Shown here: positions 2,689 through 62,640 of the stretch, piece after piece | How the letters are laid out: the number at the start of each line of letters is the position of its first letter | Position numbering within the stretch: position 1 is the stretch's first letter | Virus record (IMG/VR): IMGVR_UViG_3300045988_149288 | From: a virus | Strand: one strand, 5' to 3' | Length of the DNA stretch: 64,000 bases | The notes under the pieces: generated by a model | What the model was told of the DNA's origin: nothing | The model's database searches: none | Seen by the model: only the letters and a program-made list of their open reading frames with translations | Program-made: the position numbers and the translations under genes

Positions 2689-2712
2689 AATAATAAAATA
2701 TAGTAAAATAAA

Positions 2713-2737
2713 AGGGCCCATTTGGACCCTTTTATTT
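2713..2737. terminator. bidirectional rho-independent terminator downstream of uvsX
   Basis: aaaagggcccatttggaccctttta hairpin flanked by A-run and T-run. Confidence 0.5.
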
Positions 2738-2755
2738 ATTTGTTCTGGAAAACAA

Positions 2756-3949
2756 CTACATATCGTCGTCGTCTTCAGCGAGAATATCACCGTCGAGTTC
2801 GTCGAGGTTAGCACCAGTACGGTTAACCATAGCGATACCTGTATTTTCACTGAGGTCTTCGTAACCCGCATTCATAAGAGCGAGAACGTCTTCGTTTGCG
2901 TTGATAAGTACCTGTTCTTCGAATGCGAACTTGGATTCTACATAGTGCCTGAACGTTTCATCCTTATAGAGAGGAATCCAGAATTTAGCACAGTAGAGTT
3001 CTTCTTCCTTCCACATTCTTTCCGGCTTGCCAAGTTCACCAGTTTCAGGATCAACCTTGGTGTCATAACCGATACGTGCATAATAACCCGGCTTCGGCTT
3101 GTAAACTACGCCACATTCCATGGCTTCATCCAAAAGTCCGTAGTACGGAGATACACCACCTGCATGAAGGATAAGATACTTGGTCTTGACGAATTCCTTA
3201 GCGGAACGACCCTTAGCAACAGCACAGGTAACGACCTTACCAAGAACATTCTTGCCCTTGTCACGTTCCTTCTTAGAGGAGTAACCGAGAACAATACCGT
3301 CAGCGTTAAAGATAATACGCATACCGCCAGGAATCTTATACGGGTCGCCGAACATTTCAAGAGAAGCATAAACGTGGTTCATGACGAGAGTCGTGAAACC
3401 GCCACTCAAAATAATGTTTGCGAGTTCGTTTTTGAATTTTGCGGAAGACATGTTAACAGCGGAACTTCCCTGTTGAGCCTTTTCAAGAACCTGGTCTTCG
3501 ATAATCGGACCCCAGGAGTCAAACAATACGAAAGTATTGCGACGTTGCTGAAGCGAGCCACACTGAGCCGAGAGCTTAGCGATGAACTGCTTAATTTTCG
3601 GAATGCTGTTCGTAGGACCGTGAACACCGACTTCATCCATGTTAATTCCGAGCTTCGTAAGAAGGTCATAGTTAACGGAGTTTTCAGTATCGACAATGAA
3701 ACAGTCCATACCAGAATCCTGTGCAGCCTTAAGAACTGAATAACCAATCATGGACTTACCCCAGCCGGAACCGGCAGCAATCATGCTGATTGAACCCTTC
3801 TTAATACCACCCTTAATTTTACCAGAAAGAACGAGGTTAACCGAAATACAGTTCGTACTAAGCCATTCCACAGGAATACGCTCAGTATGAAGAAGATCGG
3901 CCAAATCCTTATCTTTCTTCATTTTCGCCAAAAGCGCGTTTTTTGCCAT
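2756..3949 (-). CDS. uvsX: UvsX-like RecA-family recombinase
   Basis: Walker A AAGSGWGKSM; blocks VNLVLSGKIKGG, HAGGVSPYYGLLDEAMECGVVYKPKPGYYAR and KFWIPLYKDETFRHYV align to T4 UvsX from memory. Confidence 0.85.
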   Translation of the reverse strand: MAKNALLAKMKKDKDLADLLHTERIPVEWLSTNCISVNLVLSGKIKGGIKKGSISMIAAGSGWGKSMIGYSVLKAAQDSGMDCFIVDTENSVNYDLLTKLGINMDEVGVHGPTNSIPKIKQFIAKLSAQCGSLQQRRNTFVLFDSWGPIIEDQVLEKAQQGSSAVNMSSAKFKNELANIILSGGFTTLVMNHVYASLEMFGDPYKIPGGMRIIFNADGIVLGYSSKKERDKGKNVLGKVVTCAVAKGRSAKEFVKTKYLILHAGGVSPYYGLLDEAMECGVVYKPKPGYYARIGYDTKVDPETGELGKPERMWKEEELYCAKFWIPLYKDETFRHYVESKFAFEEQVLINANEDVLALMNAGYEDLSENTGIAMVNRTGANLDELDGDILAEDDDDM

Positions 3950-4072
3950 TTTTTACCTATTATTTTATTTTGTCATCGAATTTGTCATCATGAGCTTTAA
4001 TCGGCTAACGTACTTTGAATCGCCCTTTTCATTGTACTTTTGCTGTTAGTCAGAATATTTATAATATAGAAA

Positions 4073-4094
4073 AAATGGTAAACTTTCATTTACC
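4073..4094. terminator. hairpin terminator followed (minus strand) by promoter-like TTTTTTCTATATTATAAATATT
   Basis: atggtaaactttcatttaccat 8-bp stem. Confidence 0.45.
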
Positions 4095-4115
4095 ATTCTT
4101 AAATTTGTTCCGATT

Positions 4116-4478
4116 TTATCGGCCGAGGAACTCATTGAGAACTTCACCTTCCGACGGATATAAATCACGGTACGGATTATGATATTCTGCTTTCTGTTTT
4201 ACGAATTCACTCTTTTCCGTCTTTTCGACAACGAAATCCTTATCAATCTTTGCAGCGGGTGCTTCAAGAATTTCCTTAGATTCCGTAATCTGTTGCGGCT
4301 TAATCAAACCTTCAGCAGCCTTAGGCTTTGATGATTCGTTAATCTGCGGAGCCGGAGTTTCTTGGTGAACGGCTTCATATTCCTTGAGCTTAGTCTTATG
4401 CTTTGTCCACATGTGAGAGCCAAGCTTCATACGGTTTTCAAAAGTTTCACCACAAATAGGGCAAGTTACTTGATCCAT
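4116..4478 (-). CDS. C2H2-type zinc-finger protein
   Basis: CPICGETF...H...HK.K.KEY resembles N-terminal module of HEG-like 53173..54093 and ORF 36658..36963. Confidence 0.45.
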   Translation of the reverse strand: MDQVTCPICGETFENRMKLGSHMWTKHKTKLKEYEAVHQETPAPQINESSKPKAAEGLIKPQQITESKEILEAPAAKIDKDFVVEKTEKSEFVKQKAEYHNPYRDLYPSEGEVLNEFLGR

Positions 4479-4490
4479 AGTCTACTCCAA

Positions 4491-5159: not shown

Positions 5160-6236
5160 CTAACTGAAAAACTCGAACATTGTCGGTCGTTCCAAATTAA
5201 TTTCTTCCTTCGGACCTAACCAACCAGCGATTCTGAACATCGTATCGAAAAGCTGACAGAAAGATTTTCTGAATGCGGTTTCATAGTCAATCTCAAAGTA
5301 TTTATTAAATTCTTGCGGCCAAGATTCGAGATATGCGACTGCTTCAATCGGCGAAGTTTTTCCGTCCATATCCTTGGCTACAATCTTCTGAGATGGCTTT
5401 ACATATACATATCGTAATTTGGAATTATTACGAATCGGGTTATATTTCAACCTGTCCTTAGTAACGATATAGTTGTAGATAATCGAAATCTTTGCACCGA
5501 AAATGAGACCAGTCGGAAGAATCAAACCATGGTCCATGTAATAGTCCATGAGCGTCTCGTATTTCATATCGAATGGCGTCGTATTCATCGCGCTTTCAGA
5601 ATACAGTTCTCTGAATTTGTCCATAGCGATTGTCGTATATTTCGTATAGTTCTTAATACCGATAACCGACGAAATAACGTTCAAATCCGAGCTCTTGAAC
5701 TGGTCATAAACCTTATAGATATATTCCTGCGCTTCTTCCTTACCGATACCATCACAGATTTTGAATGCGAGTTCTTCAGCAGCCGTTTTACAGAAGTCAG
5801 GCATGATCGATTTCTTAATAGGAACGCCCATAATTTTATGCTTCATGTGGTCAAGCGGGTACAATGAACCTTCGCTGTCGATAATGTTACCGATATACAA
5901 CTTCTTGGCAAAACAGAACATGTTTTTGAAGATGTTTTCACGGTTGAAATTAATCTTATTGACAGTATGGAACTGCTTGGCTCGAATGTCGAGAATCTTA
6001 TCGAAGAAACGCTGGAACACGTCCTCGCATTTCTGGAAATAGCTTCGATATTCCTCTTCGTTCGTAATCGATAAACCAGATTCCATCAAACGCTTCTTTA
6101 GCTCAATAATCGAAAAATAAACTGAGTCCGTATCATTATGGATCGCACAGACATCGCGACCTTTCACGACAAGAGGACTCATGTCGTTCATTTGAAATTT
6201 ATCAATCTTTACATCTAATGCTTTCTTAAATTTCAT
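5160..6236 (-). CDS. family-B DNA polymerase, C-terminal cistron (43B-like: motif C, thumb)
   Basis: Motif C HNDTDSVYF; start ATG at 6236 one nt after TAA of upstream cistron (GAGGATTAAAATG with SD GAGGA); first 35 codons of track ORF are out-of-frame overlap. Confidence 0.8.
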   Translation of the reverse strand: MKFKKALDVKIDKFQMNDMSPLVVKGRDVCAIHNDTDSVYFSIIELKKRLMESGLSITNEEEYRSYFQKCEDVFQRFFDKILDIRAKQFHTVNKINFNRENIFKNMFCFAKKLYIGNIIDSEGSLYPLDHMKHKIMGVPIKKSIMPDFCKTAAEELAFKICDGIGKEEAQEYIYKVYDQFKSSDLNVISSVIGIKNYTKYTTIAMDKFRELYSESAMNTTPFDMKYETLMDYYMDHGLILPTGLIFGAKISIIYNYIVTKDRLKYNPIRNNSKLRYVYVKPSQKIVAKDMDGKTSPIEAVAYLESWPQEFNKYFEIDYETAFRKSFCQLFDTMFRIAGWLGPKEEINLERPTMFEFFS

Positions 6237-6237
6237 T

Positions 6238-8445
6238 TTAATCCTCAATACCGAGAAGGTCCGTGTCCTTGTTGAATTCATAAGCATAGATTTCCATTTC
6301 ATCATTACCGCGAAGAACAGTAATCTTTTCATAGAAATCAAACTTATATGTCTTTTCTTCTGTAATAATGGAAACTGTCGAGAATTCCTTAACTACATCC
6401 TTGAGCAAGAACGGAGAAACATAGTATTCATTGAGATTCTTAGTCAACCAGTCTCTCAAGGTAACACGAGCACAACGGCAAATAGCACGAGCAACATCTG
6501 GGTCATACAATGCGAAGCTGTTTGCAAGAGATACACCGTAAACCGAGTTAATGATGAGCTTTTTAGTCATCTGTCGATTATGATACAAATGTTCACCAGC
6601 CTTATCGCCTTTCTTGTGACATTCCTTTTCCTTATTCTTATATACCTTACGTTCTGCAAACACCTGCTTAACAACGTTCGGAAGAATACCGTCATCGCGG
6701 TTATAGAAACCGAGTTCTGCAACGTCTGTCGGAATAACCTCACCTGATTCAATCTGTTCCTTGGTCGGATGAACAACCTTCAATTCCGGAGAGATATGGA
6801 ATTCCATAATGTGGTGCGGATATGACGAGGTAATATCGAAAGACATACAGTCGTCATGTCGACCAGGATAGTCATAGCAATAACCTGCCTTTACCTGGAA
6901 TTCTGGGAACGGATGAGGATCCTTCTTATACGCTTCCCATGCGGCAAGGAAATCCTTTTCAGTTTTCCAATGCTCGAATCTTCTCTGTCCGACAAGTCGC
7001 TTGATTGTATCATAATCATACTTTCCTTCAGTCTGAGCTTCCTTATAAGCATCATAGAAAACACGGAACTTACAATAGTCCTTATAACGTTTTGCGCCCG
7101 GTTCCCATTCAGTGTTCTGGAAGTAATCGTTTCCGTCCTTATCCTTTACGATATAGCAACGTTCGTTTCTCCACCAGTCAACATGATGGTCTTCACGGTC
7201 ATTCAAAACACGGTTGGTCTTATGTAAGAATTTTAAGATATAACCAGTAGTCGTAGGAACCTTCTGTTCAACCTTATCGAGAGTAACAAGGCAATCGAAT
7301 GCATATTCAATAATAAGGTCGAAGAGCTTGTTTTTCTTTTCAAGGTCGACCATAATCATAACGTCTTTTCTGTTATACTTCAGGAAGTTATTACCGTCAA
7401 TCTTGTAGGTTTCAGAAATTGCACCGCTATATTCCAACTTTTGATCATTCAATTCGAGGTTGGCAACATAGTTAAGGGAATACGAAGAAAGAGGCGGATG
7501 AGATCCGAAGACTTCGTACAGTTTCATGTAGTCAAGAGAATACAAACCAGGAATCGTGTACTTCGTTCCAAGTTCAACGTTTTCCATCTTGCGGTCAGTA
7601 ATCTTTTCAGCCACAGGCATCATGCCGAGAGGAGACAGATTCTTTTCCCATTCAACCTTGATGTCGTATTTCTCTCTGAGAACTTCACAACGACGCATGA
7701 TATAGGGAATATCGTATGCGAGCGAGTTCCAACCTGTAATGATGTCAAAATGATTATTGGCGAACCACTTAATCCATTCACGGATAAGTACCATTTCTGA
7801 CTTACAGTACGTATAATTCGGTAAATCCTTCGGGTCATCTGTATATCTGATTGTGCTCCAGGTATAAGATTGACCGGTCTTTGTAGAATAACAAGTAATG
7901 GCGTTAATTGGCCACTGAGCTATTTCAGGAGACGGGAAGTCATAAGAAACGAAACAGCTATCATCATAGGGAAGCCATTTCTGAACTTCAATGTCATAAA
8001 CGAAATACTTGTCATGGTCAAACTTCATATCGAAATCAATAAGACTGATGTCGAGAGTCTTCTTGGTTTTCTTTTCGCAGACCTTAATCAATGTTTCGTC
8101 ATAATACTTACTTCCTGACGCAACTTCAATATCGAAGAAACAGATATTCCATTTGCTCATGTCAACTTGGAGTTCTTCGTTATCGTATAGTTGGTGCATG
8201 TATTTGACTTCTGGACGCAAATTACCTTCACATACGCCTCTAAGACCCATAAGGGAATTACGGTCACTATAATCGAACCGTATCATCGGTGTCTTGTGAA
8301 TGTCAGTAATATTGCTCTTCTTTGAAGGATCCGGCCTGTAGCACCAGTTATGAAATTCAACTTCTTTAAAATCAATATCATCTTGGGCTTTAAAATAGAG
8401 CTTTTGTTTTTTAAAGTCCCAGTAACAATTCTTAAATCCACTCAT
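6238..8445 (-). CDS. family-B DNA polymerase, N-terminal cistron (43A-like: 3'-5' exo, pol motifs A and B)
   Basis: Exo I FFDIEV, Exo II GWNSLAYD, pol motif A DITSSYP, motif B KLIINSVYG. Confidence 0.85.
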   Translation of the reverse strand: MSGFKNCYWDFKKQKLYFKAQDDIDFKEVEFHNWCYRPDPSKKSNITDIHKTPMIRFDYSDRNSLMGLRGVCEGNLRPEVKYMHQLYDNEELQVDMSKWNICFFDIEVASGSKYYDETLIKVCEKKTKKTLDISLIDFDMKFDHDKYFVYDIEVQKWLPYDDSCFVSYDFPSPEIAQWPINAITCYSTKTGQSYTWSTIRYTDDPKDLPNYTYCKSEMVLIREWIKWFANNHFDIITGWNSLAYDIPYIMRRCEVLREKYDIKVEWEKNLSPLGMMPVAEKITDRKMENVELGTKYTIPGLYSLDYMKLYEVFGSHPPLSSYSLNYVANLELNDQKLEYSGAISETYKIDGNNFLKYNRKDVMIMVDLEKKNKLFDLIIEYAFDCLVTLDKVEQKVPTTTGYILKFLHKTNRVLNDREDHHVDWWRNERCYIVKDKDGNDYFQNTEWEPGAKRYKDYCKFRVFYDAYKEAQTEGKYDYDTIKRLVGQRRFEHWKTEKDFLAAWEAYKKDPHPFPEFQVKAGYCYDYPGRHDDCMSFDITSSYPHHIMEFHISPELKVVHPTKEQIESGEVIPTDVAELGFYNRDDGILPNVVKQVFAERKVYKNKEKECHKKGDKAGEHLYHNRQMTKKLIINSVYGVSLANSFALYDPDVARAICRCARVTLRDWLTKNLNEYYVSPFLLKDVVKEFSTVSIITEEKTYKFDFYEKITVLRGNDEMEIYAYEFNKDTDLLGIED

Positions 8446-8733: not shown

Positions 8734-8964
8734 TTATCGTTTAGTTAACCATATGTTATAGGTTCTTGTGTCTTCTTTTTGTGTCTTCGCATTGTCAGGA
8801 ATCATAGATTGATATTCTTCCGGAATTTCAGAAAAATCTGGAGCTTGCTCATACTGTTTCCACACATTGGTATTGGCAATAGCATTGGCTATTTCCGGCA
8901 TACCTTCTGTAGCTTCTTCAATATCAAGCGGAAGTCTTCTCTTTCTGCTGTACTCTGGTATCAT
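8734..8964 (-). CDS. hypothetical protein
   Basis: 76-aa ORF. Confidence 0.3.
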   Translation of the reverse strand: MIPEYSRKRRLPLDIEEATEGMPEIANAIANTNVWKQYEQAPDFSEIPEEYQSMIPDNAKTQKEDTRTYNIWLTKR

Positions 8965-10235: not shown

Positions 10236-10252
10236 CTTATTTATAGAAGTTA
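10236..10252 (-). promoter_or_regulatory. T4-late-like TATAAATA motif upstream of 9217..10227
   Basis: minus strand reads CTTCTATAAATAAGGTATAATTATG. Confidence 0.4.
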
Positions 10253-10272
10253 TTTTCAAAATATAGAAATTT

Positions 10273-13404: not shown

Positions 13405-13418
13405 AGTTAAATTTCCTT

Positions 13419-15512: not shown

Positions 15513-15557
15513 TTACCGTAATACATTGTACTACACAAGCATAATATAGTAAACAGA

Positions 15558-15586
15558 CGGGCGTTTGTAAACCCGTCTTGCTATAT
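15558..15586. terminator. bidirectional terminator
   Basis: agacgggcgtttgtaaacccgtct hairpin. Confidence 0.55.
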
Positions 15587-16122: not shown

Positions 16123-16213
16123 TGATACAAATATAGTAAAGTTTTTATTACATTTCGTAACGTTTATAAAAATCTGTATTTACAAAAACGCTTCGGTTTG
16201 CTATATTTATTAA
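16123..16213. promoter_or_regulatory. divergent promoter region carrying the CTATATTTG motif in both orientations
   Basis: minus: TTTACTATATTTGTATC before 16119; plus: GGTTTGCTATATTTATTAATATG before 16215. Confidence 0.5.
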
Positions 16214-18121: not shown

Positions 18122-18339
18122 TTGATTTCCCTTGAGGAAACCAAATAAAAATCTGGTTTCCTATTCTGTTAACCTATATGCCGCAGCAACCAACAGAACA
18201 TTCAGTAAATAGAATTTAAAGAATATTCCGAAGACTGACCTACAGCCTAATTCCTCTCGACTTGTTCCTATTGAAGATATGATTAGAAACACAAATTCCA
18301 ATACGAACAATAACGTTCCATATTCAAATATAGTAAAAA

Positions 18340-20442: not shown

Positions 20443-20461
20443 ATTGCAAATATAATAAAAA

Positions 20462-20490
20462 TAAGGCATTTTGTAAATGCCTTATTTTTT
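20462..20490. terminator. bidirectional terminator
   Basis: aaggcattttgtaaatgcctt + T-run. Confidence 0.55.
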
Positions 20491-20655: not shown

Positions 20656-21771
20656 TTATTTATTAAGGTAATCTTCAATAATCTGCTCGTGATGGAAACC
20701 CATCTTCGGGAGGTCATTAACATCGAACCATGCAGCATCCTTGGCGTCGTCACCGGCCTTTGCGAGCTTCTTTTCCTTGCCAGATACCTTCACAGACACT
20801 GCTGTATCGATAATACGCAAGCGTGGGTCAAACATGTGGCTGTAGGTCTTAATCTGCTCAAACTTTTCAACCGGAAGGTCCAGGGACGTTTCTTCGCGGA
20901 ATTCACGCTGTGCTGCATGTTCCAAAGAAGCATCTGCTTTTTCCGGAAGTCCGGTTTCCTTATTAGTATAGTCGGTCGGATTAAAAAAACCACCGGGTGT
21001 GCAGAAGTAGTTCATGTAAGGCGGTTTCTTACGGCGAATCAACAGAACTTGGTCACTAGAAATACCGACAATATCGACGGTATTGGCGAACTTGCCCCAG
21101 CCCTGCTTCTTGTAGTTTTCAAGCCACTGCTTTTCGAGTTCTTCGTAATTGGACGGGTTCTGGTCATAAAGGCTGTTAGTCTTGATAGGCATATCACGGT
21201 CATCAGTCAGTTCGCCTTCTTTACGGATATATTCGAAAACCGGCTTGCTGATATACTGCTTCACATCCTTGTAATGACATTCAGGATTTCTGTAGAAAAT
21301 ATCACGAGCTTCGCTACTGGAAATATCGCCCTTGAGACCGAGATCGAGCAAAGAACAACCTTCACGCTTTTCGATACCAGTCGGAAGACCAGGATAACGA
21401 ACACAGACAATAAACTTGTAATTCTTCAAGAGACGGTCGCTAAACTTCCACTTCTTATCGAGCAATGCCTGCCATTCGTCTTCACCGATAACGATAGTAA
21501 TATCTGTATCTTCGGTTCCGAACTTGGAAGTAATGAATTCATAAGTTCTGTTATTCTGGATAAGAATAGTCGGATTCAACTTACGTGCCTTCATCGCAAC
21601 TTCAACCATAGCGGCACGTTCATTCACTGGCGTCTTGTAATTCTTTTCATCTGTATTGGAAACGATGACATAAAGTTCATCGCCTTTACGAACCTTCTTG
21701 CTCACAGCCTTGATAATAGCTTCATGAGCGTGTGTAATCGGATCAAATGCACCACCAATCAAATACTTCAT
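20656..21771 (-). CDS. bifunctional NMN adenylyltransferase / Nudix hydrolase (NadM-Nudix, NatV-like)
   Basis: N-terminal GGAFDPITHAHEA (HxGH nucleotidyltransferase); C-terminal Nudix box AAQREFREETSL. Confidence 0.8.
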   Translation of the reverse strand: MKYLIGGAFDPITHAHEAIIKAVSKKVRKGDELYVIVSNTDEKNYKTPVNERAAMVEVAMKARKLNPTILIQNNRTYEFITSKFGTEDTDITIVIGEDEWQALLDKKWKFSDRLLKNYKFIVCVRYPGLPTGIEKREGCSLLDLGLKGDISSSEARDIFYRNPECHYKDVKQYISKPVFEYIRKEGELTDDRDMPIKTNSLYDQNPSNYEELEKQWLENYKKQGWGKFANTVDIVGISSDQVLLIRRKKPPYMNYFCTPGGFFNPTDYTNKETGLPEKADASLEHAAQREFREETSLDLPVEKFEQIKTYSHMFDPRLRIIDTAVSVKVSGKEKKLAKAGDDAKDAAWFDVNDLPKMGFHHEQIIEDYLNK

Positions 21772-22141: not shown

Positions 22142-22180
22142 AGCTGTTCCTTATGTTTTTACGAAATATAGTAAAAAGAA

Positions 22181-22200
22181 AGGGCTTTGTAAGCCCTTAA
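22181..22200. terminator. terminator
   Basis: aagggctttgtaagccctt. Confidence 0.5.
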
Positions 22201-23776: not shown

Positions 23777-23837
23777 AGTAGTTCCTTTTGTTTATGTGTA
23801 TAATATAGTAAATTCGCCTATAAATGTCAACCCAAAA

Positions 23838-25816: not shown

Positions 25817-25924
25817 AACATTTCCTCATTAAAAGTGTTAAAGCGAGAAGTAGTATTTATTTGCCTAAATTATAATGATATAGGAACATCTTTTGCTTTA
25901 ACGGGTTAAAATATAGTAATTATT

Positions 25925-25952
25925 GAGGGTTTTGTAAACCCCTATTTTTTAG
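25925..25952. terminator. terminator
   Basis: gagggttttgtaaacccctatttttt. Confidence 0.5.
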
Positions 25953-26133
25953 TTTTTTCCTTGGTTACTTTCTTCTTCAAGGAGTTTTCTGTTTCCAACG
26001 TACTTCCCATAAAAACTTACCGCTCGGATCGTGTTAGAATAGTTTAGGGATTGAGTTCTGTTTGACGATAAACAACCCGAACGGTCTGTATAATATAGCA
26101 AGTGCTTTGTCTGTTGTAAACCCTATATATGAA

Positions 26134-27053: not shown

Positions 27054-27093
27054 ATTTTCTCCTATACTATTTATAAGAGAAAAATGACCAGAA

Positions 27094-28019: not shown

Positions 28020-28064
28020 ATAATAAAATATAATAAAAAATATATTATTTGTTAATATATTATT

Positions 28065-28934: not shown

Positions 28935-28945
28935 ATTATATTTAT

Positions 28946-28968
28946 AATAAAAGGGGTTTTGACCCCTT
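28946..28968. terminator. terminator
   Basis: aaaaggggttttgacccctttatt. Confidence 0.55.
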
Positions 28969-30083: not shown

Positions 30084-30115
30084 GTTATACAATATAGTAA
30101 AAAATATAGGCCTTG

Positions 30116-30382
30116 TCAACCCATTTTTTCTAAAGCATTGAGAATACAAAAATCATGCTTAAATGCAAGATTTTCTTTTTCAACGTCCATATCGTATTTC
30201 TTGTCACCCATTTGGATAATCTTATAAGAAGAATTTGCGATATGAGTATCGCTTTCTCGCGTCCACGAATACGTATAGCCACCAATCAGTTCTTGTTTAA
30301 GGGTTCTCCGTATAAGTCCATGAATATAACAATCACAGTCGTCTTTAACACCATCTTTGTCAATTATTGTTACTAGAATCAT
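30116..30382 (-). CDS. hypothetical protein
   Basis: 88-aa ORF. Confidence 0.3.
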   Translation of the reverse strand: MILVTIIDKDGVKDDCDCYIHGLIRRTLKQELIGGYTYSWTRESDTHIANSSYKIIQMGDKKYDMDVEKENLAFKHDFCILNALEKMG

Positions 30383-31087: not shown

Positions 31088-31097
31088 ACGTATAATA

Positions 31098-31130
31098 TAG
31101 AAAAAGGGTCGACTTACGTCAACCCTTTTA
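31098..31130. terminator. terminator (GTCAACCC hairpin family)
   Basis: aaaagggtcgacttacgtcaaccctttta. Confidence 0.55.
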
Positions 31131-34651: not shown

Positions 34652-34687
34652 TTAAGTCTCCGTATTTACGTGTCTAAATATAAAAAA

Positions 34688-34715
34688 AGAGTTGACGTTT
34701 GTCAACCCTTTTTAT
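34688..34715. terminator. terminator (GTCAACCC family)
   Basis: aaaaaagagttgacgtttgtcaaccctttttat. Confidence 0.55.
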
Positions 34716-36448: not shown

Positions 36449-36467
36449 AATAACCTCTATATACTAT

Positions 36468-36495
36468 TTATAAAAAAGACTAGAACCCAAAAGTT
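36468..36495. terminator. terminator
   Basis: aaaaagactagaacccaaaagttctagtcttt. Confidence 0.5.
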
Positions 36496-37007: not shown

Positions 37008-37080
37008 TTTATTTATAAAATAAGTTAGGGAAAGGTTGCCGCCTTTCCCAAATAGCAGGAAGTATTTTTGCTATCTGTCC
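37008..37080 (-). promoter_or_regulatory. cassette A: hairpin + CTAACTTATTTTATAAATA + RBS-sequestering IR
   Basis: shared architecture with cassettes B, C, D; IR AGGAAGTAT (37058-37066) pairs with SD region ATACTTCCT (36966-36974). Confidence 0.5.
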
Positions 37081-38235: not shown

Positions 38236-38298
38236 AATATTGCAAATATAGTAAATAAATTTTTAACTAATTTTTGTTTACACGAAAAACTTCTGAAA

Positions 38299-42090: not shown

Positions 42091-42133
42091 ACACCCTCAA
42101 ATATAGGTAAAAATAATTTTTTAGTCTTTCGCT

Positions 42134-42628: not shown

Positions 42629-42797
42629 ATTACCCAATATAGAAAAATGTTGTGTTTTTGTCAATAGTTAAATTAAAGCGAACATGACGATAATACCACC
42701 GAAGAGACCGACAAGGATGAGGGTCGCGATTATCTTCAGTGCTAATTCTTCAATGCCGTTGCCGAATAGATTTTTATCTTCATCTTTTGTCATATCA

Positions 42798-43214: not shown

Positions 43215-43724
43215 AATTTATCCTTAATGCTTAAATATAGCAAATCCATTACGATTCAATTACAACATATATATAAAATTTCCATGATTTTTTAAAATGA
43301 CAGAATATTTTATTTTTAGTTAAAAAATTTTTTGCAAAAACTTTCTATACTTGGGTTTACATATTCAAGTCTGATTCCTCGGAACGAAGACCAATCCAAT
43401 GGAATTGTCGGTAGAGGGTCAGCCATTGAAAACTTCAGATACGGGTTTTCCAGAAATGAGCTGGAATATCGTTTTGAAACATACTCGGTAACAGCTAGTG
43501 GAAGTATCAGCGAAGTGCAGATTAGCAATCTGCACGTTTAGCCGCCATGGTTTTAACGGATATAGCCGAAGTACAGGATGACCGCCTCGTAAGCCGTTAT
43601 GTAAATCCCGAAAGATTGACGATGAAGCTTTATACCAAAAGTGGAATAGTCATAGTCTGGAAGTTCCTTCTAGGCTTATGATCTCTGAATCGCATTACCC
43701 AAAAGATAGAACAAATAAAAATAA

Positions 43725-44796: not shown

Positions 44797-44803
44797 ACAT
44801 TAT

Positions 44804-45619
44804 TTATGACAATGCTTCAATGCAGGTAATGAACTTCATCGGGATATTTTGGTTAGTAAAGCATGCACAGGAGGACAATTCGTCATCGTCGTCGAATTCC
44901 GGGTCCTTATGGACTGGCCAATTTTCCGGAAGGTCGATTCTGTACATATGCATCTGAGGCATTTCCTCGTCATGGTCTTTTTCCCATTCGATTACAATCT
45001 GGTTAAACATGGACTGGGCGAGGTTATACATTTCGTCATTAAGCTTGTGCTGGGCCATTCTTACGCTTGTGTCTATATCTATATCCCCTCTGAGAATAAG
45101 GACCTTCAAAGCCATCTTACCGTTAATCATGTAGATACGTGGAGGATAGTTGACGCTCTTAGACTTTCTCTTGCAACGGAGACCTCCAGTTTTAATCAAT
45201 TCGTCAGGAGTAGCACTGCTTATATGATAGAACTTGGTAAAATCGAGCTTTCCGAGGAACTTGTTGAAAGTAGCCATGTATTCCTTGTTTTTGAAAAGCT
45301 CAAGTTCATAATAAGGCTTGACGTTATCGACTTCTTCACGTCCCTGACGGAAAATGACTTCATCAGTAGTATAGTTGCCTTCGTCATCAACGAGAGAACA
45401 ATCGTACCAGCCGTTAGCGGCAAAAAACTTGGCAACGTCATGAACATCGAGGTCGTTTTCCTTCAATATCTCCTGGCTGAACTTTACTTCCATTCCGTTT
45501 AGAGTCATACGCTTAGCACAGTTCTGTAATGGAATATGAAATCTTACCCTGAACTTTTTCACAAGTTCCGGCAAGTCTACGAATTTAAGCGATTCCGTTA
45601 AAATATTCAAAAGTCTCAT
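44804..45619 (-). CDS. hypothetical protein (paralog of 45620..46342)
   Basis: C-termini YRIDLPENWPVHKDPEFDDDDELSSCACFTNQ vs YLVRLPESVKVYKDPEYTELEEEVSTGACFTTQ. Confidence 0.4.
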   Translation of the reverse strand: MRLLNILTESLKFVDLPELVKKFRVRFHIPLQNCAKRMTLNGMEVKFSQEILKENDLDVHDVAKFFAANGWYDCSLVDDEGNYTTDEVIFRQGREEVDNVKPYYELELFKNKEYMATFNKFLGKLDFTKFYHISSATPDELIKTGGLRCKRKSKSVNYPPRIYMINGKMALKVLILRGDIDIDTSVRMAQHKLNDEMYNLAQSMFNQIVIEWEKDHDEEMPQMHMYRIDLPENWPVHKDPEFDDDDELSSCACFTNQNIPMKFITCIEALS

Positions 45620-46342: not shown

Positions 46343-46674
46343 TCTTTACCTATAATCAACTTTATATTCTTCTTGATTTCATATGTCAGTGAATCAGGAA
46401 CTATTGGAAGAACCTTGATTGTACTGTCGTCGATAATCATTGTTACATGGCTGTTTCCGAAAATGTAGTAGAAGTTGATTTCTGTTCCTCTGTCTTCCAC
46501 TGATAACGAAAGTGCTTTAGTGTCTTTATTCTCGTTAGTCCTCGACATGATAACATTACGGTCGTGAATCGACTTGTTCATATCCGTAAAAACAGTCTTG
46601 ACATTATTGTAATTAATTGATCGCCAGTTTATATTGTCGTTCATATCATATTTATAAGTGGACAAAAATCCCAT
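46333..46674 (-). CDS. hypothetical protein
   Basis: 113-aa ORF. Confidence 0.3.
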   Translation of the reverse strand: MGFLSTYKYDMNDNINWRSINYNNVKTVFTDMNKSIHDRNVIMSRTNENKDTKALSLSVEDRGTEINFYYIFGNSHVTMIIDDSTIKVLPIVPDSLTYEIKKNIKLIIGKECV

Positions 46675-46700
46675 TTTTATAAATATATCAGTGAGGATTT

Positions 46701-49107: not shown

Positions 49108-49154
49108 ATATTACCTCAGTTATTAGTTATTAGTATGCTGCAACATACTATATT

Positions 49155-49220
49155 ATTTATAAAAAGTTAGACTGACCTTGCAGGGTCAGTCAAGTGTAAC
49201 TGAGGTAACACCTGTCCTTT
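49155..49220 (-). promoter_or_regulatory. cassette B: hairpin + CTAACTTTTTATAAATA + RBS-sequestering IR
   Basis: tatttataaaaagttag + gactgaccttgcagggtcagtc + cctgtcc; IR TAACTGAGGTA (49198-49208) vs TACCTCAGTTA (49112-49122). Confidence 0.5.
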
Positions 49221-50366: not shown

Positions 50367-50377
50367 AATGCAATATT

Positions 50378-50446
50378 TATATATTTAAAAAAGTTAGGGT
50401 AATGCCGCAAACATTACCCAAGCGCTACGGAAAACGCCTGTCCTTT
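50378..50446 (-). promoter_or_regulatory. cassette C (no RBS-sequestering IR evident)
   Basis: atatttaaaaaagttag + gggtaatgccgcaaacattaccc + cgcctgtcc immediately after stop of 50447..50815. Confidence 0.45.
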
Positions 50447-52714: not shown

Positions 52715-52722
52715 TTGGCCTC

Positions 52723-54093: not shown

Positions 54094-54139
54094 ATTTACC
54101 TCGTAATTTTAAAATATTAATTTCCTAGATTAATTTTAT

Positions 54140-54210
54140 TATATTTATAAAAAGTTAGCCAGGAACTAGGAATTCCTGGCAAGCACTACGAGGTATGCCT
54201 GTCCTTTTGT
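54140..54210 (-). promoter_or_regulatory. cassette D: hairpin + CTAACTTTTTATAAATA + RBS-sequestering IR
   Basis: atatttataaaaagttag + ccaggaactaggaattcctgg + gcctgtcc; IR CTACGAGGTA (54186-54195) vs TACCTCGTAA (54097-54106). Confidence 0.5.
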
Positions 54211-54222
54211 TTTATTTATATA

Positions 54223-54996: not shown

Positions 54997-54998
54997 AA

Positions 54999-55406: not shown

Positions 55407-55407
55407 A

Positions 55408-55986: not shown

Positions 55987-55987
55987 A

Positions 55988-56584: not shown

Positions 56585-56593
56585 AATATAATA

Positions 56594-56625
56594 AAAAGGC
56601 TGACTTTCGTCAACCTTTTTTATTT
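56594..56625. terminator. terminator (GTCAACC family)
   Basis: aaaaaggctgactttcgtcaaccttttttatttt. Confidence 0.55.
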
Positions 56626-58214: not shown

Positions 58215-58592
58215 TTAAGCGGTGAATGTGTTCTTTGCGTTAGAAATGTCAACACCGATATGACGGAAGAGGTCAACCATAGTACCACCAGCGTTAAGAC
58301 CAATTTTCTGGTCAACGAAGTTTTCGTACTTGGCCTTAGCGTCAATAGAATCGAACTGGTCTTCGGAAACGACCTGATTCTTGGCGTAGTCAACGATAGC
58401 CTGGACGAGATCTTGAGCAAGGTTCTTGAAACCTTCCTTGAGGTCGCCGTTCTTCACGTACTGAGCAATAATGCTAGCAGCACCGCTCATCGGAGCTTCA
58501 GAAGGCTGAGCCTGAGGAGCAGCAGCAAGAGCAGCTTCTTCGTCGAGCTTCTGGCGCATATAGGTCTTGAAATCTACATCTTTAATATCCAT
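58215..58592 (-). CDS. hypothetical protein
   Basis: 125-aa ORF. Confidence 0.35.
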   Translation of the reverse strand: MDIKDVDFKTYMRQKLDEEAALAAAPQAQPSEAPMSGAASIIAQYVKNGDLKEGFKNLAQDLVQAIVDYAKNQVVSEDQFDSIDAKAKYENFVDQKIGLNAGGTMVDLFRHIGVDISNAKNTFTA

Positions 58593-58619
58593 AATTGTTT
58601 CTCCTAAATTTTTTATTAT

Positions 58620-58970
58620 TTATAGTTCCTTGGCCAGTTCCTTAACTGCGTCCTTGTATTTCTTTATCAGAATACGAGTTTCTGCACCGACTTCAAGAAG
58701 CGGTTTTCCAGCCTTGTAAACACGCTTGTTGGCTTTCATCAAAGACTTGATTTTTCCCTTGTTCTTACTTCCAGTAAGAGTGAACGTTACTTCACCTCCC
58801 TTAGAAACGGTAATAGAACCGATTTCACCGGTTTCATCGGAGCAAGTCATTGAATTGTCAACGATTTTAATCTTGGAATCGCTATAAAAACTGTACTTGA
58901 ATCCAGCCTTTGTAAGAATATCCAAGATTTTGTTTAATTTTGGGTCAATTTCTTTAAAATCTCTAGTCAT
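58620..58970 (-). CDS. hypothetical protein
   Basis: 116-aa ORF; TTTTATAAATAATAT immediately upstream. Confidence 0.35.
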   Translation of the reverse strand: MTRDFKEIDPKLNKILDILTKAGFKYSFYSDSKIKIVDNSMTCSDETGEIGSITVSKGGEVTFTLTGSKNKGKIKSLMKANKRVYKAGKPLLEVGAETRILIKKYKDAVKELAKEL

Positions 58971-58987
58971 ATATTATTTATAAAACC

Positions 58988-59513: not shown

Positions 59514-59945
59514 TTATAAAAGTTCTTCAAATTCGGACATATCTAGTTGACGTTCTTTATACATCTTTCGACTTTCACGAATTTTGATTTTGCGTTTTTC
59601 AGTTTCTTTCATTTTTATATACTGATGAGCATTAACGTGTCTATAACAATATTTTAGACATTTGCCCATTTTAATAAGCAATAAATGACAGATATGGTGT
59701 TCTTTCGGAGAAAGTTCAATTTTATTTTCTTTCTTATTGCTTCCGCCTTCGGACCTGGGTATGATGTGGTGGTTTTCGATTTGACCCATTAATAATCTGT
59801 TTTTTGCTCGCTCGATTATCTTATTATAGATTTTTTCGTAATCCAAACTAATATCCCTTGTTGGTAATTGTAGACAGTTCTCTGAGAGCATCTTTCTGAA
59901 TGTTGTTTGACATAAAGAAATCCGATGGTAAACCCAGTATTTCAC
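59514..59945 (-). CDS. HNH homing endonuclease
   Basis: NHHIIPRSEGGSNKKENKIELSPKEHHICH (H-N-H); located immediately downstream of frd. Confidence 0.75.
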   Translation of the reverse strand: MKYWVYHRISLCQTTFRKMLSENCLQLPTRDISLDYEKIYNKIIERAKNRLLMGQIENHHIIPRSEGGSNKKENKIELSPKEHHICHLLLIKMGKCLKYCYRHVNAHQYIKMKETEKRKIKIRESRKMYKERQLDMSEFEELL

Positions 59946-60309
59946 CTATATAATCATTTTTGATTCGATAACAGCTTCTGACTCTCTCCTTTCTGTACAT
60001 TTTCAGGCCATAGCCAATATCTGAAAAACATCTATTGAGTTCATAACCATTAAAAATGCAAGGAACATCCTTATCCATAATATTCTTCATTTTCTGCATA
60101 TTAGTAAGTATCTTTTTAATAATGTCGGTATTGAAGTAATGAAAGTTTATACCAGCAAACAAAGATTCCATCGGAGGTGCATAGGCACAGTAGATAACTG
60201 GAGATTTATCTGTTCCGACAATATTCTTAGCCTGATAGTTAAACGTATAAAAATAGCCAGCTATTACCTGACTAGTATATTCAAGTGCTTCATTAGTATC
60301 AACTGCCAT
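59848..60309 (-). CDS. hypothetical protein
   Basis: 153-aa ORF overlapping HNH gene start by ~100 nt. Confidence 0.35.
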   Translation of the reverse strand: MAVDTNEALEYTSQVIAGYFYTFNYQAKNIVGTDKSPVIYCAYAPPMESLFAGINFHYFNTDIIKKILTNMQKMKNIMDKDVPCIFNGYELNRCFSDIGYGLKMYRKERVRSCYRIKNDYIGEILGLPSDFFMSNNIQKDALRELSTITNKGY

Positions 60310-60351
60310 ACGTTATTTATGTTAATATAGCTTAATTTAAAGGAAAACAAA

Positions 60352-60382: not shown

Positions 60383-60404
60383 AATATAAAGGATTGTTTG
60401 TCTA

Positions 60405-61286
60405 TTACTTCTTGAGAGCGGCTTCGCGGAGTTCCTTCTTGGCTTCTTCGATACGCTTTCTGATCTTTGCATTGATAGCAGTCATAATCGGTTCAAAGAG
60501 CAAGTCAAAACGGGATTCGTTGAGCTTACCAATGAGGTAGTCGCTCTTAGCGTTCAAGTAACGACCCTTACGGTGCCAGTAGTTGTAGGCTTCAGACTTA
60601 GTAGAGTCGTCTTCGGAAGTATCTTCCTCACCTTCGCCTTCAGAACCTTCTTCAGATTCGCCTTCACCTTCAGTACCCTCTTCAGATTCACCTTCACCAC
60701 CTTCTTCGCCTTCGCCTTCGGTACCTTCTTCAGATTCACCTTCGCCTTCAGCGCCGTTATCTTCGTCACCAAGTTCAGCGTCTCCGAAATCTTCGGTGCT
60801 GGCTTCTTCAGATTCGCCTTCACCTTCGCCTTCTTCGGAACCTTCTTCATTGTTGTTTCCAAGGTTTTCTACCTTGTCAGACAAAGTTTGAATTGCGGTT
60901 GTAAGAGTGGAGAGGAGGTCCTTAAGTTCGGTTGTTACACCGGCTTCAGCTTCCTTGGCAGCGCCATCGTCTTCTTCGCCTTCACCCTTGAAATCTTCGA
61001 GGTTGTCGGTATTTTCTTCTTCTTCTTCGCCTTCGGTAGAAGTTTCGTCATCGGACTGAGATTCGTCGTCAGAACCCTCTTCACCTTCAGCACCTTCTTC
61101 TGGTTCTTCAGAAATATCAAGATCTGAATTCTTTTCATCCTCGTTAGAAAGTTCTTCGAGGTTTTCTTCACCAGTAGAATCATCGGAAGTTACCGGCTTT
61201 TCTTCGTCACCGTCCAAGAAGCCTTCATTGAGGCCCTTCTTGTTGGCACGCTTCCATTCTTCAAAAATTTGCTGTTCGTTTTTCAT
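60405..61286 (-). CDS. hyper-acidic Glu/Gly/Ser repeat protein
   Basis: EGEGESEEGTEGEGEEGGEGESEEG tandem repeats; basic helical C-tail. Confidence 0.45.
   Translation of the reverse strand: MKNEQQIFEEWKRANKKGLNEGFLDGDEEKPVTSDDSTGEENLEELSNEDEKNSDLDISEEPEEGAEGEEGSDDESQSDDETSTEGEEEEENTDNLEDFKGEGEEDDGAAKEAEAGVTTELKDLLSTLTTAIQTLSDKVENLGNNNEEGSEEGEGEGESEEASTEDFGDAELGDEDNGAEGEGESEEGTEGEGEEGGEGESEEGTEGEGESEEGSEGEGEEDTSEDDSTKSEAYNYWHRKGRYLNAKSDYLIGKLNESRFDLLFEPIMTAINAKIRKRIEEAKKELREAALKK
60590..60870. repeat. tandem nucleotide repeats (ccttc(a/g)ccttc...ttcagattc units) encoding E/G/S repeats
   Basis: visible periodic repeat in sequence. Confidence 0.6.
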
Positions 61287-61346
61287 ATTTTTAAATCCTC
61301 TATATTCTTATTTATAAAATTTTTAAAAAGGCTCGTTTTTGCAAAA

Positions 61347-61751
61347 TTAAAGGGTATTTCTAAATGTTAACATTTCTGGAGAATTATACATTTCATCAAA
61401 TTTCTTGGTAAGTTCAACACACTTTAAGAAACTTGTCGTGTTATTAGTGATAATATCACGGAAATCCCTATAATATTCGTCAAGAGTAGTCTTGTAGTTC
61501 TTGCTGAGCTTGAACATATCCAGAACTGCAGCACTCTTGAATTCCTTCTTGAGTTGCTTGATTGTAGCTGGGGTAAGGGTCTTGATATAACGTTCAACAG
61601 TATCAACCGCAGCCTTAAGAACGACGTCAGCCTTGATTTCTTTCTTATCAGCACATGTGATAAGACGAGGACTGATGAGAGTATAAATCAACGGATTGTT
61701 TTCCATCGAACTAAACTCTGCAGATTCATTCATTAAATAGTCTCTTAACAT
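61347..61751 (-). CDS. hypothetical protein
   Basis: 134-aa ORF. Confidence 0.35.
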   Translation of the reverse strand: MLRDYLMNESAEFSSMENNPLIYTLISPRLITCADKKEIKADVVLKAAVDTVERYIKTLTPATIKQLKKEFKSAAVLDMFKLSKNYKTTLDEYYRDFRDIITNNTTSFLKCVELTKKFDEMYNSPEMLTFRNTL

Positions 61752-61775
61752 ATTGTTTTCCTTTTGACTTGTCTT

Positions 61776-62591
61776 TTAATTATTTATTGCCTTCTCCAAC
61801 TTAGTTATACGCTTCTTTATGTCAGTAACTACATTATTTGCGATAGTTTGAGCAGCTTCTGCATCTTCAAGAGCGGTTACTCTTTCGTCAAGTGCTGTAA
61901 TTCTTGTACTTAGGTCATGAACACTTTCCTTTAATTCGGCAATATAATTCATGACTACATCGCATTCTTTATTGGTAACTAGGGTATACGGATAACTATT
62001 TGGATTTTCTGGGTCATCAGCAGACGGTTCATAAGTAACTGATAAAACTTTTTCAAATGCCAATTCGCCGATTGGATTAAATCTTAAAACATGGTCCTTT
62101 GTACCGTTTCCAACGAAATATGTCGGATCTGCATAAACTTCCTTGAGGCATGCACTAGTTGCCGAATAATATGCCTTTTTCGCAACTTGAGCAGAAATCG
62201 CAGAAAGTTTACTGTAAATATCCGGCACTGAACTGGCAGCACTTGTCCAATTTTCCCAGTTCTCTCCAACAACCCATGCTGCAGAAAGCATTTCAGAAAT
62301 TCCAGAGAGAGCACTTAATCCACTAAAATCGTTGATATTCAATGCTGTAAAACCAAGTACAGCAGAAATCGAATTCCACATGTTAATGTCTTCGTAGGTC
62401 ACGCAAACGCATTCGTCAGCGGACGGAGGACAACAAGGAGCATTCCAAGGAACCAGTGCTGCAGGTTCGGAATCGTTCCAATGATGCCAGTAACGATAAT
62501 GAGGCCAGTCCGGATGAACATTTGGACCTGGCCAATCCGGTCCGTAAGGACGCGGAGGATAGGGTGGATATGGTGGATAACCGTTATTCAT
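61776..62591 (-). CDS. Pro/Tyr/Trp-rich N-terminus + coiled-coil C-terminus protein
   Basis: GYPPYPPYPPRPYGPDWPGPNVHPDWPHYRYWHHW; TATAAATATAAT immediately upstream. Confidence 0.4.
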   Translation of the reverse strand: MNNGYPPYPPYPPRPYGPDWPGPNVHPDWPHYRYWHHWNDSEPAALVPWNAPCCPPSADECVCVTYEDINMWNSISAVLGFTALNINDFSGLSALSGISEMLSAAWVVGENWENWTSAASSVPDIYSKLSAISAQVAKKAYYSATSACLKEVYADPTYFVGNGTKDHVLRFNPIGELAFEKVLSVTYEPSADDPENPNSYPYTLVTNKECDVVMNYIAELKESVHDLSTRITALDERVTALEDAEAAQTIANNVVTDIKKRITKLEKAINN

Positions 62592-62605
62592 ATTATATTT
62601 ATAAA

Positions 62606-62640
62606 TTTTGAAAACACCCTAAATTTTGGGTGTTTCAAAA
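62606..62640. terminator. terminator
   Basis: aaaacaccctaaattttgggtgtttcaaaaaa. Confidence 0.6.

Follow-up and report, generated by a model that had tools for sequence, protein, structure and literature searches.

Two predicted promoter classes in a T4-like jumbo phage with a probable Fibrobacter host

We analysed a 64,000-nucleotide stretch of viral DNA (IMG/VR record IMGVR_UViG_3300045988_149288; the whole stretch is called the window here) in which two short motifs recur upstream of genes: class 1, a TATATT hexamer behind a T-rich tract (TTTAC-TATATT), and class 2, the 8-mer TATAAATA. The window belongs to the genome of a T4-like jumbo phage of ~415 kb; a 418,491-bp ENA contig (ERZ27229658 k119_414475) contains it at 100% identity, as positions 17,074-81,073, and relatives are 411–424 kb long. 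We conclude, at a rough probability of 0.72, that the two motifs are the main promoter classes of this phage, that its host is probably Fibrobacter, and that leaderless starts are part of the system. Nearly all window genes lie on the minus strand, the GC content is ~39%, and intergenic DNA makes up ~5% of the window at 28% GC (4.2 kb of it was used as the intergenic background).

Class 1: a −10 box with and without a −35 partner

Both motifs are strand-specific, lie far above the AT-rich intergenic background and are kept in relatives, in agreement with an earlier note on this DNA that had proposed two recurrent upstream motifs from the letters alone. Over the whole window, TTTACTATATT at ≤1 mismatch has 22 matches against 3.8 expected, 19 of them on the minus (gene) strand, and none of 100 shuffles reached 22; CTATATTTG has 6 matches against 1.0 expected, and TATAAATA has 18 against 6.6, 17 of them on the minus strand. 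The note had named enrichment no higher than that of AT-rich DNA as the outcome that would speak against its motifs. Within intergenic DNA, both motifs clearly exceed expectation: TATAAATA occurs 14 times in sense and once in antisense orientation with 1.55 expected, and CTATATT occurs 14 times in sense and 4 times in antisense orientation with 0.85 expected, the antisense matches including the site of the plus-strand gene cca. An unbiased count of sense-strand intergenic 8-mers returned both motifs as the commonest. The positions proposed earlier were right to ~10 nt, and the motif at 16197-16207 does share the orientation of cca (ATG 16215). That both motifs behave as promoters is well supported by these patterns; from them we infer promoter activity, as well as the sigma factor that would read each class and the timing of expression.

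The core of class 1 is a TATATT hexamer after a T-rich tract that ends in (A/G/T)C, and by its sequence it is a sigma-70-type −10 box. When all TATATT were aligned, 14 sites (class 1a) showed a −35 hexamer TT(G/T)AC(A/G) exactly 17 nt upstream, usually after G or GGG; 12 of these −35 boxes are strict and two are degenerate (CTTACA and TTAACA). The composite pattern TT[GT]AC[AG]-N17-TATATT was found 12 times against 0.18 expected (about 65-fold enriched; largest shuffle, 3), and spacings of 14, 15, 16, 18, 19 and 20 nt gave 0–1 matches each. An independent sigma-70 consensus scan ranked the class-1a sites top. All 14 class-1a sites, and the 10 class-1b sites described further below, lie between genes and have the orientation of the gene that follows. 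The class-1a sites are as follows (L004, L007, L010 and L017 are loci of relatives, L004 being 86% and L007 70% identical).

2279..2307, minus: TTGACA-N17-TATATT, before the BRCT/C-terminal half of the NAD ligase (ATG 2255, GGAG Shine-Dalgarno)
15543..15571, minus: TTTACA-N17-TATATT, with the −35 in a terminator hairpin loop, before gene 14940-15512; kept in L004
16179..16207, plus: TTTACA-N17-TATATT, before cca, with ATG 16215 7 nt past the hexamer and no Shine-Dalgarno (leaderless type)
20449..20477, minus: TTTACA-N17-TATATT, in a terminator hairpin, with the phosphoesterase ATG 20442 6 nt past the hexamer
22165..22193, minus: CTTACA-N17-TATATT, in a hairpin, before gene 21773-22141 (Shine-Dalgarno)
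23802..23830, minus: GGGTTGACA-N17-TATATT, before gene 23216-23776 (Shine-Dalgarno); the −35 is GTCAACCC at 23826 on the plus strand
25910..25938, minus: TTTACA-N17-TATATT, before a 638-aa gene (ATG 25816; leader of 93 nt, Shine-Dalgarno)
26092..26120, minus: TTTACA-N17-TATATT, in the gene-poor gap 25817-26177, without a long open reading frame directly downstream
28027..28055, minus: TTAACA-N17-TATATT, with ATG 28019 7 nt past the hexamer
30091..30119, minus: GGGTTGACA-N17-TATATT, before the N-terminal half of the NAD ligase, with ATG 30083 7 nt past the hexamer
31094..31122, minus: GGGTTGACG-N17-TATATT, with ATG 31087 6 nt past the hexamer
34677..34705, minus: GGGTTGACA-N17-TATATT, in a hairpin, before gene 34145-34651 (GGAG Shine-Dalgarno)
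42636..42664, minus: TTGACA-N17-TATATT, with ATG 42628 7 nt past the hexamer
56585..56613, minus: GGTTGACG-N17-TATATT, in a hairpin, with ATG 56578 6 nt past the hexamer

Further composite sites occur in other parts of the family genomes, and a scan of viral contigs with the pattern GGGTTKACA-N17-TATATT returned, among the matches listed, mostly unrelated contigs together with extra loci of the family.

In 9 of the 14 class-1a sites, the −35 box or the spacer lies inside a terminator hairpin built of A-tract, GC-stem and T-tract, and such a hairpin accompanies 3 of the 10 class-1b sites. The class-1 hairpins (−12 to −21 kcal/mol) span the −35 position and end 1–3 nt before the −10 box. At 31094..31122 the hairpin AAAAGGGTTGAC-GTAA-GTCGACCCTTTT makes up both the −35 box and the spacer, and copies of the element 31094-31138 match other places in relatives. 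The earlier note had seen several terminators share a GTCAACCC stem or a TTTGTAAA loop. The sites exist (GTCAACCC at all four positions, 23826, 30115, 31118 and 34701; TTTGTAAA at 15564, 20470 and 25931), but they do not form a separate feature: GTCAACCC and TTTGTAAA are the reverse complements of the class-1 −35 hexamers GGGTTGAC and TTTACAAA, that is, −35 boxes on the other strand. Since each copy is accounted for in this way, shared terminator stems were rejected as a feature of their own.

This layout resembles the early promoters and the PeSL elements of T4-like phages. The early −35 of such phages reads GTTTAC/GTTGAC, and their late box TATAAATA lies at −13 to −6 (PMC1524935); the PeSL reads TTGACA/TTTACW-N17-TAYWAT with an A3-4G3-loop-C3T3-4 stem (PMC2839356, PMC4122927). 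The elements of RB49/phi1, T4/PST and KVP40/nt-1 share with the present ones the sigma-70 type, the 17-nt spacer, the G before the −35, a terminator hairpin of this A3-4G3-loop-C3T3-4 form overlapping the −35 or spacer, and repetition between many small genes (PMC2839356, PMC4122927, PMC1524935). Unlike in PeSL elements, where the −10 is of the TATAAT type, the −10 here is TATATT with a TTTAC extension; about half of the elements here lack a Shine-Dalgarno and have the ATG 6–9 nt past the hexamer, whereas described PeSLs end in a Shine-Dalgarno and start codon; and the probable host here is Fibrobacter, theirs a proteobacterium. Class 1 would be read by the host RNA polymerase with its primary sigma factor, and class 1a would represent the early-promoter architecture of T4-like phages. 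A single 50-bp terminator–promoter element would end the upstream transcript and start the next one, as in PeSL.

Class 1b comprises ~10 sites with a T-rich TTTAC-TATATT box, usually reading TATATTTG, and no −35 box. The hexamer is followed by TG in 6 of 10 class-1b sites and in 1 of 14 class-1a sites (Fisher p = 0.009). These sites precede the polymerase, uvsX, uvsY and RNase H genes, which are of the T4 'middle' type, and a kinase-like gene.

2697..2707, minus: TTTACTATATT, directly after a terminator hairpin; ATG 2688 8 nt past the hexamer
4056..4073, minus: class-1b box overlapping a late box (TTTTCTATATTATAAATA), upstream of UvsX (ATG 3949); identical in L004 and L010
8451..8463, minus: TTTTCTATATTTG, after a terminator hairpin; DNA polymerase ATG 8445 7 nt past the hexamer
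10260..10270, minus: class 1b-like TTTCTATATTTTG, followed 20 nt downstream by the late box 10238-10245; CTATATTT kept in L007
14882..14894, minus: TTAACTATATTTG, before gene 14579-14851 (AGGAG Shine-Dalgarno); kept in L004, where the flanks have diverged
16128..16140, minus: TTTACTATATTTG, divergent from the cca promoter, before the kinase-like gene (ATG 16110, Shine-Dalgarno)
18325..18337, minus: TTTACTATATTTG, where RnlA stops and a small open reading frame starts; target gene uncertain
38243..38255, minus: TTTACTATATTTG, with ATG 38235 9 nt past the hexamer
42098..42110, minus: TTTACCTATATTTG, with RNase H ATG 42090 9 nt past the hexamer
43234..43244, minus: TTTGCTATATT, before UvsY (ATG 43214, Shine-Dalgarno)

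In alignments with relatives at 86% identity, none of 72 TATATT positions (chance ~1e-4) and none of 48 TATAAATA positions (chance 0.02) differ, and 7–17% of flanking intergenic positions do. At the site at 2284, L004 has had its spacer sequence largely replaced and has kept both hexamers and the 17-nt length; the cca promoter is kept in L004, 7-nt gap included, and at 16128..16140 the same locus keeps the motif and has a diverged −35 region. The more distant L007 keeps three sites (polymerase, ligase half and 10245): TTTACA-N17-TATATT stands upstream of the ligase-half orthologue, and TTTTTTTCTATATTTGA upstream of the polymerase, there with a leader and a Shine-Dalgarno instead of the short gap.

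Class 1b might be a separate 'middle' class that needs a phage activator or a sigma-remodelling factor, as MotA and AsiA act in T4, and not the unmodified host holoenzyme. It does precede orthologues of the T4 middle genes 43, uvsX, uvsY and rnh, the TG after the hexamer does set it apart, and its region where a −35 would sit diverges freely among relatives. However, the ten sites share no box near −30 in an alignment by eye and no MotA-box-like element was found in them; neither MotA nor AsiA has a homologue in the window; and Fibrobacter chromosomal genes show the same −35-less architecture of T-tract and TATATT without any phage factor. A separate middle class is, in our view, a serious but doubtful alternative to the reading of class 1b by the host polymerase.

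Class 2: putative late boxes

For class 2, we aligned 19 TATAAATA sites, 15 in the window and 4 just past its right end. None of the 19 has a −35 box (best −35 match ≤4/6), and all have a T-rich tract upstream, often a terminator tail. The pattern downstream is NN-ATA, with an A 5 nt past the box in 16 of 19 sites. Past the right end of the window, TATAAATA lies 19 nt upstream of a tail-tube gene (phrog_45, E 1e-18; L015:6854-7405) and also precedes several unannotated genes. The targets further include uvsX, a major facilitator superfamily (MFS) transporter and homing endonucleases; most others are without annotation. The late boxes and variants in the window are listed here.

62596..62603, minus: TATAAATA-TAAT-ATG, ATG 62591 after a 4-nt gap; kept in L017
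61309..61316, minus: TATAAATA, before gene 60405-61286 (Shine-Dalgarno)
60314..60321, minus: variant CATAAATA-ACGT-ATG, gp2-like DNA end protector, ATG 60309
58975..58982, minus: TATAAATA-ATAT-ATG, ATG 58970
58617..58624, minus: TATAAATA, before gene 58215-58592 (Shine-Dalgarno)
54142..54149, minus: cassette-junction late box (hairpin-TAACTTTT-TATAAATA), before a homing endonuclease with ATG 54093
50374..50381, minus: late box in a cassette junction, MFS transporter, ATG 50366 after a 7-nt gap
49154..49161, minus: cassette-junction late box, before a homing endonuclease with ATG 49107
46649..46656, minus: TATAAATA-TGAT-ATG, ATG 46644
46678..46685, plus: late box of gene 46701-47966 (Shine-Dalgarno), divergent from the box at 46649-46656
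44801..44808, minus: variant CATAAATA-ATGT-ATG, ATG 44796
37010..37017, minus: cassette-junction late box, before gene 36658-36963
36465..36472, minus: late box directly after a terminator hairpin, 438-aa gene, ATG 36448, Shine-Dalgarno
28939..28946, minus: TATAAATA-TAAT-ATG, homing endonuclease, ATG 28934
27068..27075, minus: late box of gene 26178-27053 (GGAG Shine-Dalgarno), of an unnamed PHROG family and patatin-like by the look of its sequence
20657..20664, minus: variant AATAAATA-AAGC-ATG, ATG 20652
10238..10245, minus: TATAAATA-AGGTATAATT-ATG, ATG 10227; TCTATAAATAAGGTATAAT-ATG kept in L007

The 'four cassettes' mentioned in the earlier note can be placed at 54149, 50381, 49161 and 37017, and each consists of a hairpin, then TAACTT(T/A)TTT, then TATAAATA. 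Such repeated junctions of ~60 nt separate the genes of a low-GC stretch (31%; 48000-56000) that holds homing endonucleases, DNA methyltransferase fragments and the MFS transporter; they may be the late-promoter counterpart of PeSL cassettes.

The invariant TATAAATA, the lack of a −35, the T4-like gene set and, for some of the boxes, the position before virion genes (tail tube, gp2-like) are shared with T4 late promoters and with the jumbo phages CBB and GAP32, in which an ATAAATA late motif stands upstream of structural genes and a gp55-like gene is present (PMC5259590). Compared with T4, the conserved A, which at seven sites is the A of the start codon, lies 5 nt instead of 6 nt past the box, mRNAs without a leader would arise at seven sites, and the genes for gp55, gp33 and gp45 were not found here within ~100 kb. 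We consider it plausible that class 2 is a T4-type late promoter read by a gp55-like phage sigma factor. Such a factor would drive the tail-tube, gp2-like and several unannotated genes as well as the homing-endonuclease cassettes. The T4-like late programme suggested by the earlier note is thereby borne out as far as the behaviour of the box and the gene set go, and gp55 is the part that did not turn up in ~100 kb.

The protein searches weigh against a gp55-type reading. No homologue of gp55, gp33, gp45, MotA or AsiA was found in the window (PHROGs, concatenated proteins) or in ~100 kb of family sequence out of ~415 kb. A gp55 hidden Markov model (HMM), based on the proteins of T4, one cyanophage, two Vibrio phages and one Stenotrophomonas phage, gave no match in any family locus (~100 kb), and the 80 contigs that a scan of viral contigs with the gp55 alignment returned were all unrelated T4-like phages.

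These searches would suit a different origin of the box, namely a −35-independent variant (TATAAA plus TA) read by the host primary-sigma holoenzyme and without temporal meaning. In its favour too, TATAAATA has TATA in common with class 1, follows T-tracts as class 1b does, is phased to the ATG in the TATATT-N6 register, and precedes non-structural genes such as those for homing endonucleases, the MFS transporter and uvsX. However, an invariant 8-mer of this kind is what marks late promoters of the T4 type (PMC1524935). In other, distant jumbo phages related to T4, the motif goes with structural genes and a gp55-like gene (PMC5259590), and here it precedes the tail-tube and gp2-like genes. Furthermore, TATAAATA is absent or rare in Fibrobacter loci (0–3 per 20 kb, both strands), and gp55 is present throughout T4-like phages, cyanophages included. 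We therefore regard a host-sigma origin of the box as improbable and favour the gp55-type late promoter.

Start-codon phasing in both classes

The distance from TATATT to ATG is bimodal. In the pool of 42 class-1 promoters, it measures 6–9 nt in 23 cases, 10–18 nt in none and ≥19 nt in 19; the short-gap genes have no Shine-Dalgarno core, and the long-gap genes have GGAG, AGGA or GAGG in the usual place. In class 2, ATAAATA-N4-ATG occurs 7 times and any other gap 0–3 times; none of these seven genes has a Shine-Dalgarno core, and the A of the N4-spaced ATG is the same conserved A as in late sites with a leader. Across the window, a Shine-Dalgarno core at the right spacing precedes 60 of 103 genes (58%), and the core positions peak sharply at −13 to −9. 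At 56585..56613, the ATG at gap 6 is kept in L017 and an alternative ATG at gap 0 is mutated.

Because a Pribnow box 6–8 nt from the start is an accepted signature of leaderless genes (PMC6028130), we infer leaderless mRNAs, or leaders of 0–3 nt, for the short-gap genes. About half of the class-1 sites and 7 class-2 sites would have the start codon where transcription should begin, without a Shine-Dalgarno, and would yield leaderless mRNAs. By this reckoning of 5' ends from sequence, ~19 of ~103 window genes, from both promoter classes, are most likely leaderless or have a leader of 0–3 nt. Two coexisting kinds of gene start, one with a Shine-Dalgarno 6–8 nt upstream and the other with a Pribnow box 6–8 nt upstream and no Shine-Dalgarno, are known from GeneMarkS-2 'group C' (Actinobacteria, Deinococcus-Thermus; PMC6028130); unlike there, the pattern here is seen in the sequence of a T4-like phage and of Fibrobacter loci.

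Two observations count against strict leaderlessness. Close relatives differ in the gap at the polymerase site (7, 8 or 10 nt), where the 70% relative has its Shine-Dalgarno leader; since this gap varies, 'leaderless' may in places mean a leader of 0–3 nt. Moreover, T4 numbering (box at −13 to −6) puts the A of the N4-spaced ATG at −1, not +1. A wider proposal can be made, in which a T4-like Fibrobacter jumbo phage makes a large share of its early and gp55-type late genes leaderless by copying a widespread Fibrobacter architecture of T-tract-TATATT, 6–7 nt and ATG; we put it forward tentatively, at somewhat less than even odds. No report of leaderless transcription in Fibrobacter or in a T4-like phage was found in the literature searched. 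To our knowledge, no T4-type late promoter is placed to start transcription at AUG.

Host and gene content of the phage

The host is probably Fibrobacter (phylum Fibrobacterota), with the same mix of Shine-Dalgarno and leaderless starts as the phage. Fibrobacter is the most likely host because of the identity of a flotillin, the shared promoter motif and register, and the Shine-Dalgarno spacing in Fibrobacter loci. The phage SPFH/flotillin (31152-32801, minus) is 70–73% identical to ~20 Fibrobacter chromosomal copies (GC 46–54%), isolate genomes included, and the next tier (Oscillospiraceae, Streptococcus and others) reaches ≤51%. It is likely a cellular acquisition, since it has no PHROG family, and the match points to gene exchange between the phage lineage and Fibrobacter.

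The loci around these copies show a Shine-Dalgarno peak at the spacing of the phage in 37% of genes, a share that agrees with the published figure for Fibrobacteria (PMC10783764). TAnnnT at −13/−12 from the ATG was found in 16% of unique Fibrobacter genes vs 2% in Clostridia and Streptococcus loci. The 29 unique Fibrobacter cases give the consensus aaTTTT(c/g)TATATT + 6–7 nt + ATG, with exactly TATATT in 13 of 29 and no −35 consensus, and the phage class-1b motif is nearly identical to these −35-less chromosomal promoters, in the same register.

Several points weigh against a Fibrobacter host. The Fibrobacter promoter set consists of ~20 orthologous neighbourhoods, not whole genomes, and the phage GC of 39% is well under the 46–54% of Fibrobacter. 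The MFS transporter (oxalate/formate-antiporter-like, 49221-50366, minus, behind a late box) is closest to Paludibacteraceae at 72%, followed by Fibrobacter at 66% (both from metagenome-assembled genomes, MAGs); this split between Bacteroidota and Fibrobacter makes the transporter ambiguous as a host marker, and it was set aside. Among gut jumbo phages that carry genes for NAD synthesis, many were predicted in a CRISPR-based survey to infect Bacteroidota (PMC11662467). MAG binning was likewise rejected as host evidence, the relatives being placed inconsistently in Methanobrevibacter, Fibrobacter and Prevotella MAGs.

These placements look like public binning errors. Among the relatives (L144, L145, L160 and L161 included), contigs of 173–191 kb (GC 31%) were in Methanobrevibacter MAGs and contigs of 16–20 kb (GC 51%) in Fibrobacter and Prevotella MAGs; the GC range of the phage family, 31–51%, is striking.

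The earlier note had taken class 1 for the Bacteroidetes primary-sigma −7 element TAnnTTTG, which would put the host in Bacteroidota, for example Prevotella or Paludibacteraceae. Fibrobacter belongs to a different phylum within the same FCB group. Six or seven class-1b sites read TATATTTG and are compatible with TAnnTTTG; the −35/−33 region is dispensable in both systems; and the Paludibacteraceae-like transporter, the survey prediction (PMC11662467) and a GC-rich relative binned into a Prevotella MAG also favour a Bacteroidota host. However, TAnnTTTG is at chance in the window (67 vs 68.5 expected), with 6 sense and 5 antisense intergenic matches vs 2.9 expected, and only the specific TATATTTG recurs. 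The −33 partner is missing as well: TTTG-N18-22-TAnnTTTG occurs twice vs 2.5 expected, neither time at a gene start. Instead, 14 sites have a TTGACA-type −35 at exactly 17 bp, mostly without TTTG, and the majority of genes (58%) have a Shine-Dalgarno core, which Bacteroidia ribosomes do not use (PMC7797042, PMC9976891, PMC3155529). In addition, the contig from the Prevotella MAG is also part of a MAG of Fibrobacter. The identity with the Bacteroidetes element thus fails and this reading as a whole, Bacteroidota host included, is very unlikely, but the idea that the motif indicates the host holds good: it carries host information, which points to Fibrobacter.

That the motifs act as RNA (A/U-rich translation enhancers, RNase processing sites or mobile-element ends) or are AT-rich background is extremely unlikely: they do lie 5–35 nt from start codons in AT-rich spacers and the cassette junctions are repeated, but the enrichment holds against shuffled intergenic sequence and the antisense strand, a −35 at one exact spacing has no RNA-level rationale, the motif would sit upstream of the transcript in leaderless-type sites, and the hexamer is invariant while its flanks diverge.

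Profile searches (PHROGs and others) identified a T4-like replication and recombination set in the window, together with an RnlA-type RNA ligase, dihydrofolate reductase (DHFR), dCMP deaminase, cca and several homing endonucleases. The NAD-dependent ligase is in two halves, each with a separate class-1a promoter.

2756-3949, minus: UvsX, profile match
42798-43214, minus: UvsY, profile match
6238-8445 and 5160-6237, minus: gp43-type family-B DNA polymerase in two adjacent open reading frames, profile match
41236-42090, minus: RNase H, profile match
59848-60309, minus: gp2-like DNA end protector, profile match
28971-30149 (adenylation and OB) and 1440-2297 (HhH and BRCT), minus: halves of the NAD-dependent ligase, ~27 kb apart

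A search with 24 kb of the window gave no nucleotide match among GenBank phages, and protein identity to GenBank T4-like phages is only ~30%, so that the phage is without a usable annotated relative; no copy of its DNA polymerase was found in a contig scan of species-representative genomes. The MAGs that contain its GTDB relatives derive from the gut of goats, sheep and yaks. On account of these, of the cow-rumen-2 RNA in the window and of records from ruminant studies, we regard it as a jumbo phage of the ruminant gut. The cow-rumen-2 RNA (Rfam RF02947) has a full-length match at 43509-43613 on the plus strand (107.5 bits, gathering score 66, E 8e-20). It occupies the gap that separates the UvsY-like gene from gene 43927-44796, nearly all genes being on the other strand; a jumbo phage thus carries this orphan rumen RNA motif.

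An IF1-like protein (Pfam eIF-1a, phrog_30201) is encoded at 8924-9214 (minus), just upstream of the polymerase operon, and may be relevant to a phage that apparently uses many leaderless mRNAs. Two tandem GroES-like genes lie at 13075-13748 (minus). To the left of the window (L009 13866-19808) are genes for an M18 aminopeptidase, an isochorismatase/nicotinamidase and NAPRTase, which with the NMNAT-Nudix gene at 20656-21822 make up a NAD salvage set resembling that of the published 'NAD-jumbo phages'. The 360-nt gap 25817-26177, which has no convincing open reading frame and carries tandem class-1a promoters at 26092-26120 and 25910-25938, might encode a small RNA or serve as a long regulated leader of the 638-aa gene.

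Sigma-70-like early and TATAAATA late promoters in a T4-like phage are what a specialist would expect; what is new is that both classes show leaderless-type phasing and that the architecture matches that of Fibrobacter promoters. Together they provide a usable, predicted map of early and late promoters for an uncultured ~415 kb phage and a testable assignment to Fibrobacter, a key rumen fibre degrader that no more than two papers of the literature searched pair with jumbo phages. Regulatory motifs can predict a host more finely than an 'AT-rich −10 box' would, as the phage copies the hexamer, the T-tract, the ATG spacing and the Shine-Dalgarno spacing. If the leaderless reading is true, gene calling in such phages and in Fibrobacter needs a leaderless start model, and T4-type late transcription could also deliver mRNAs that begin at AUG.

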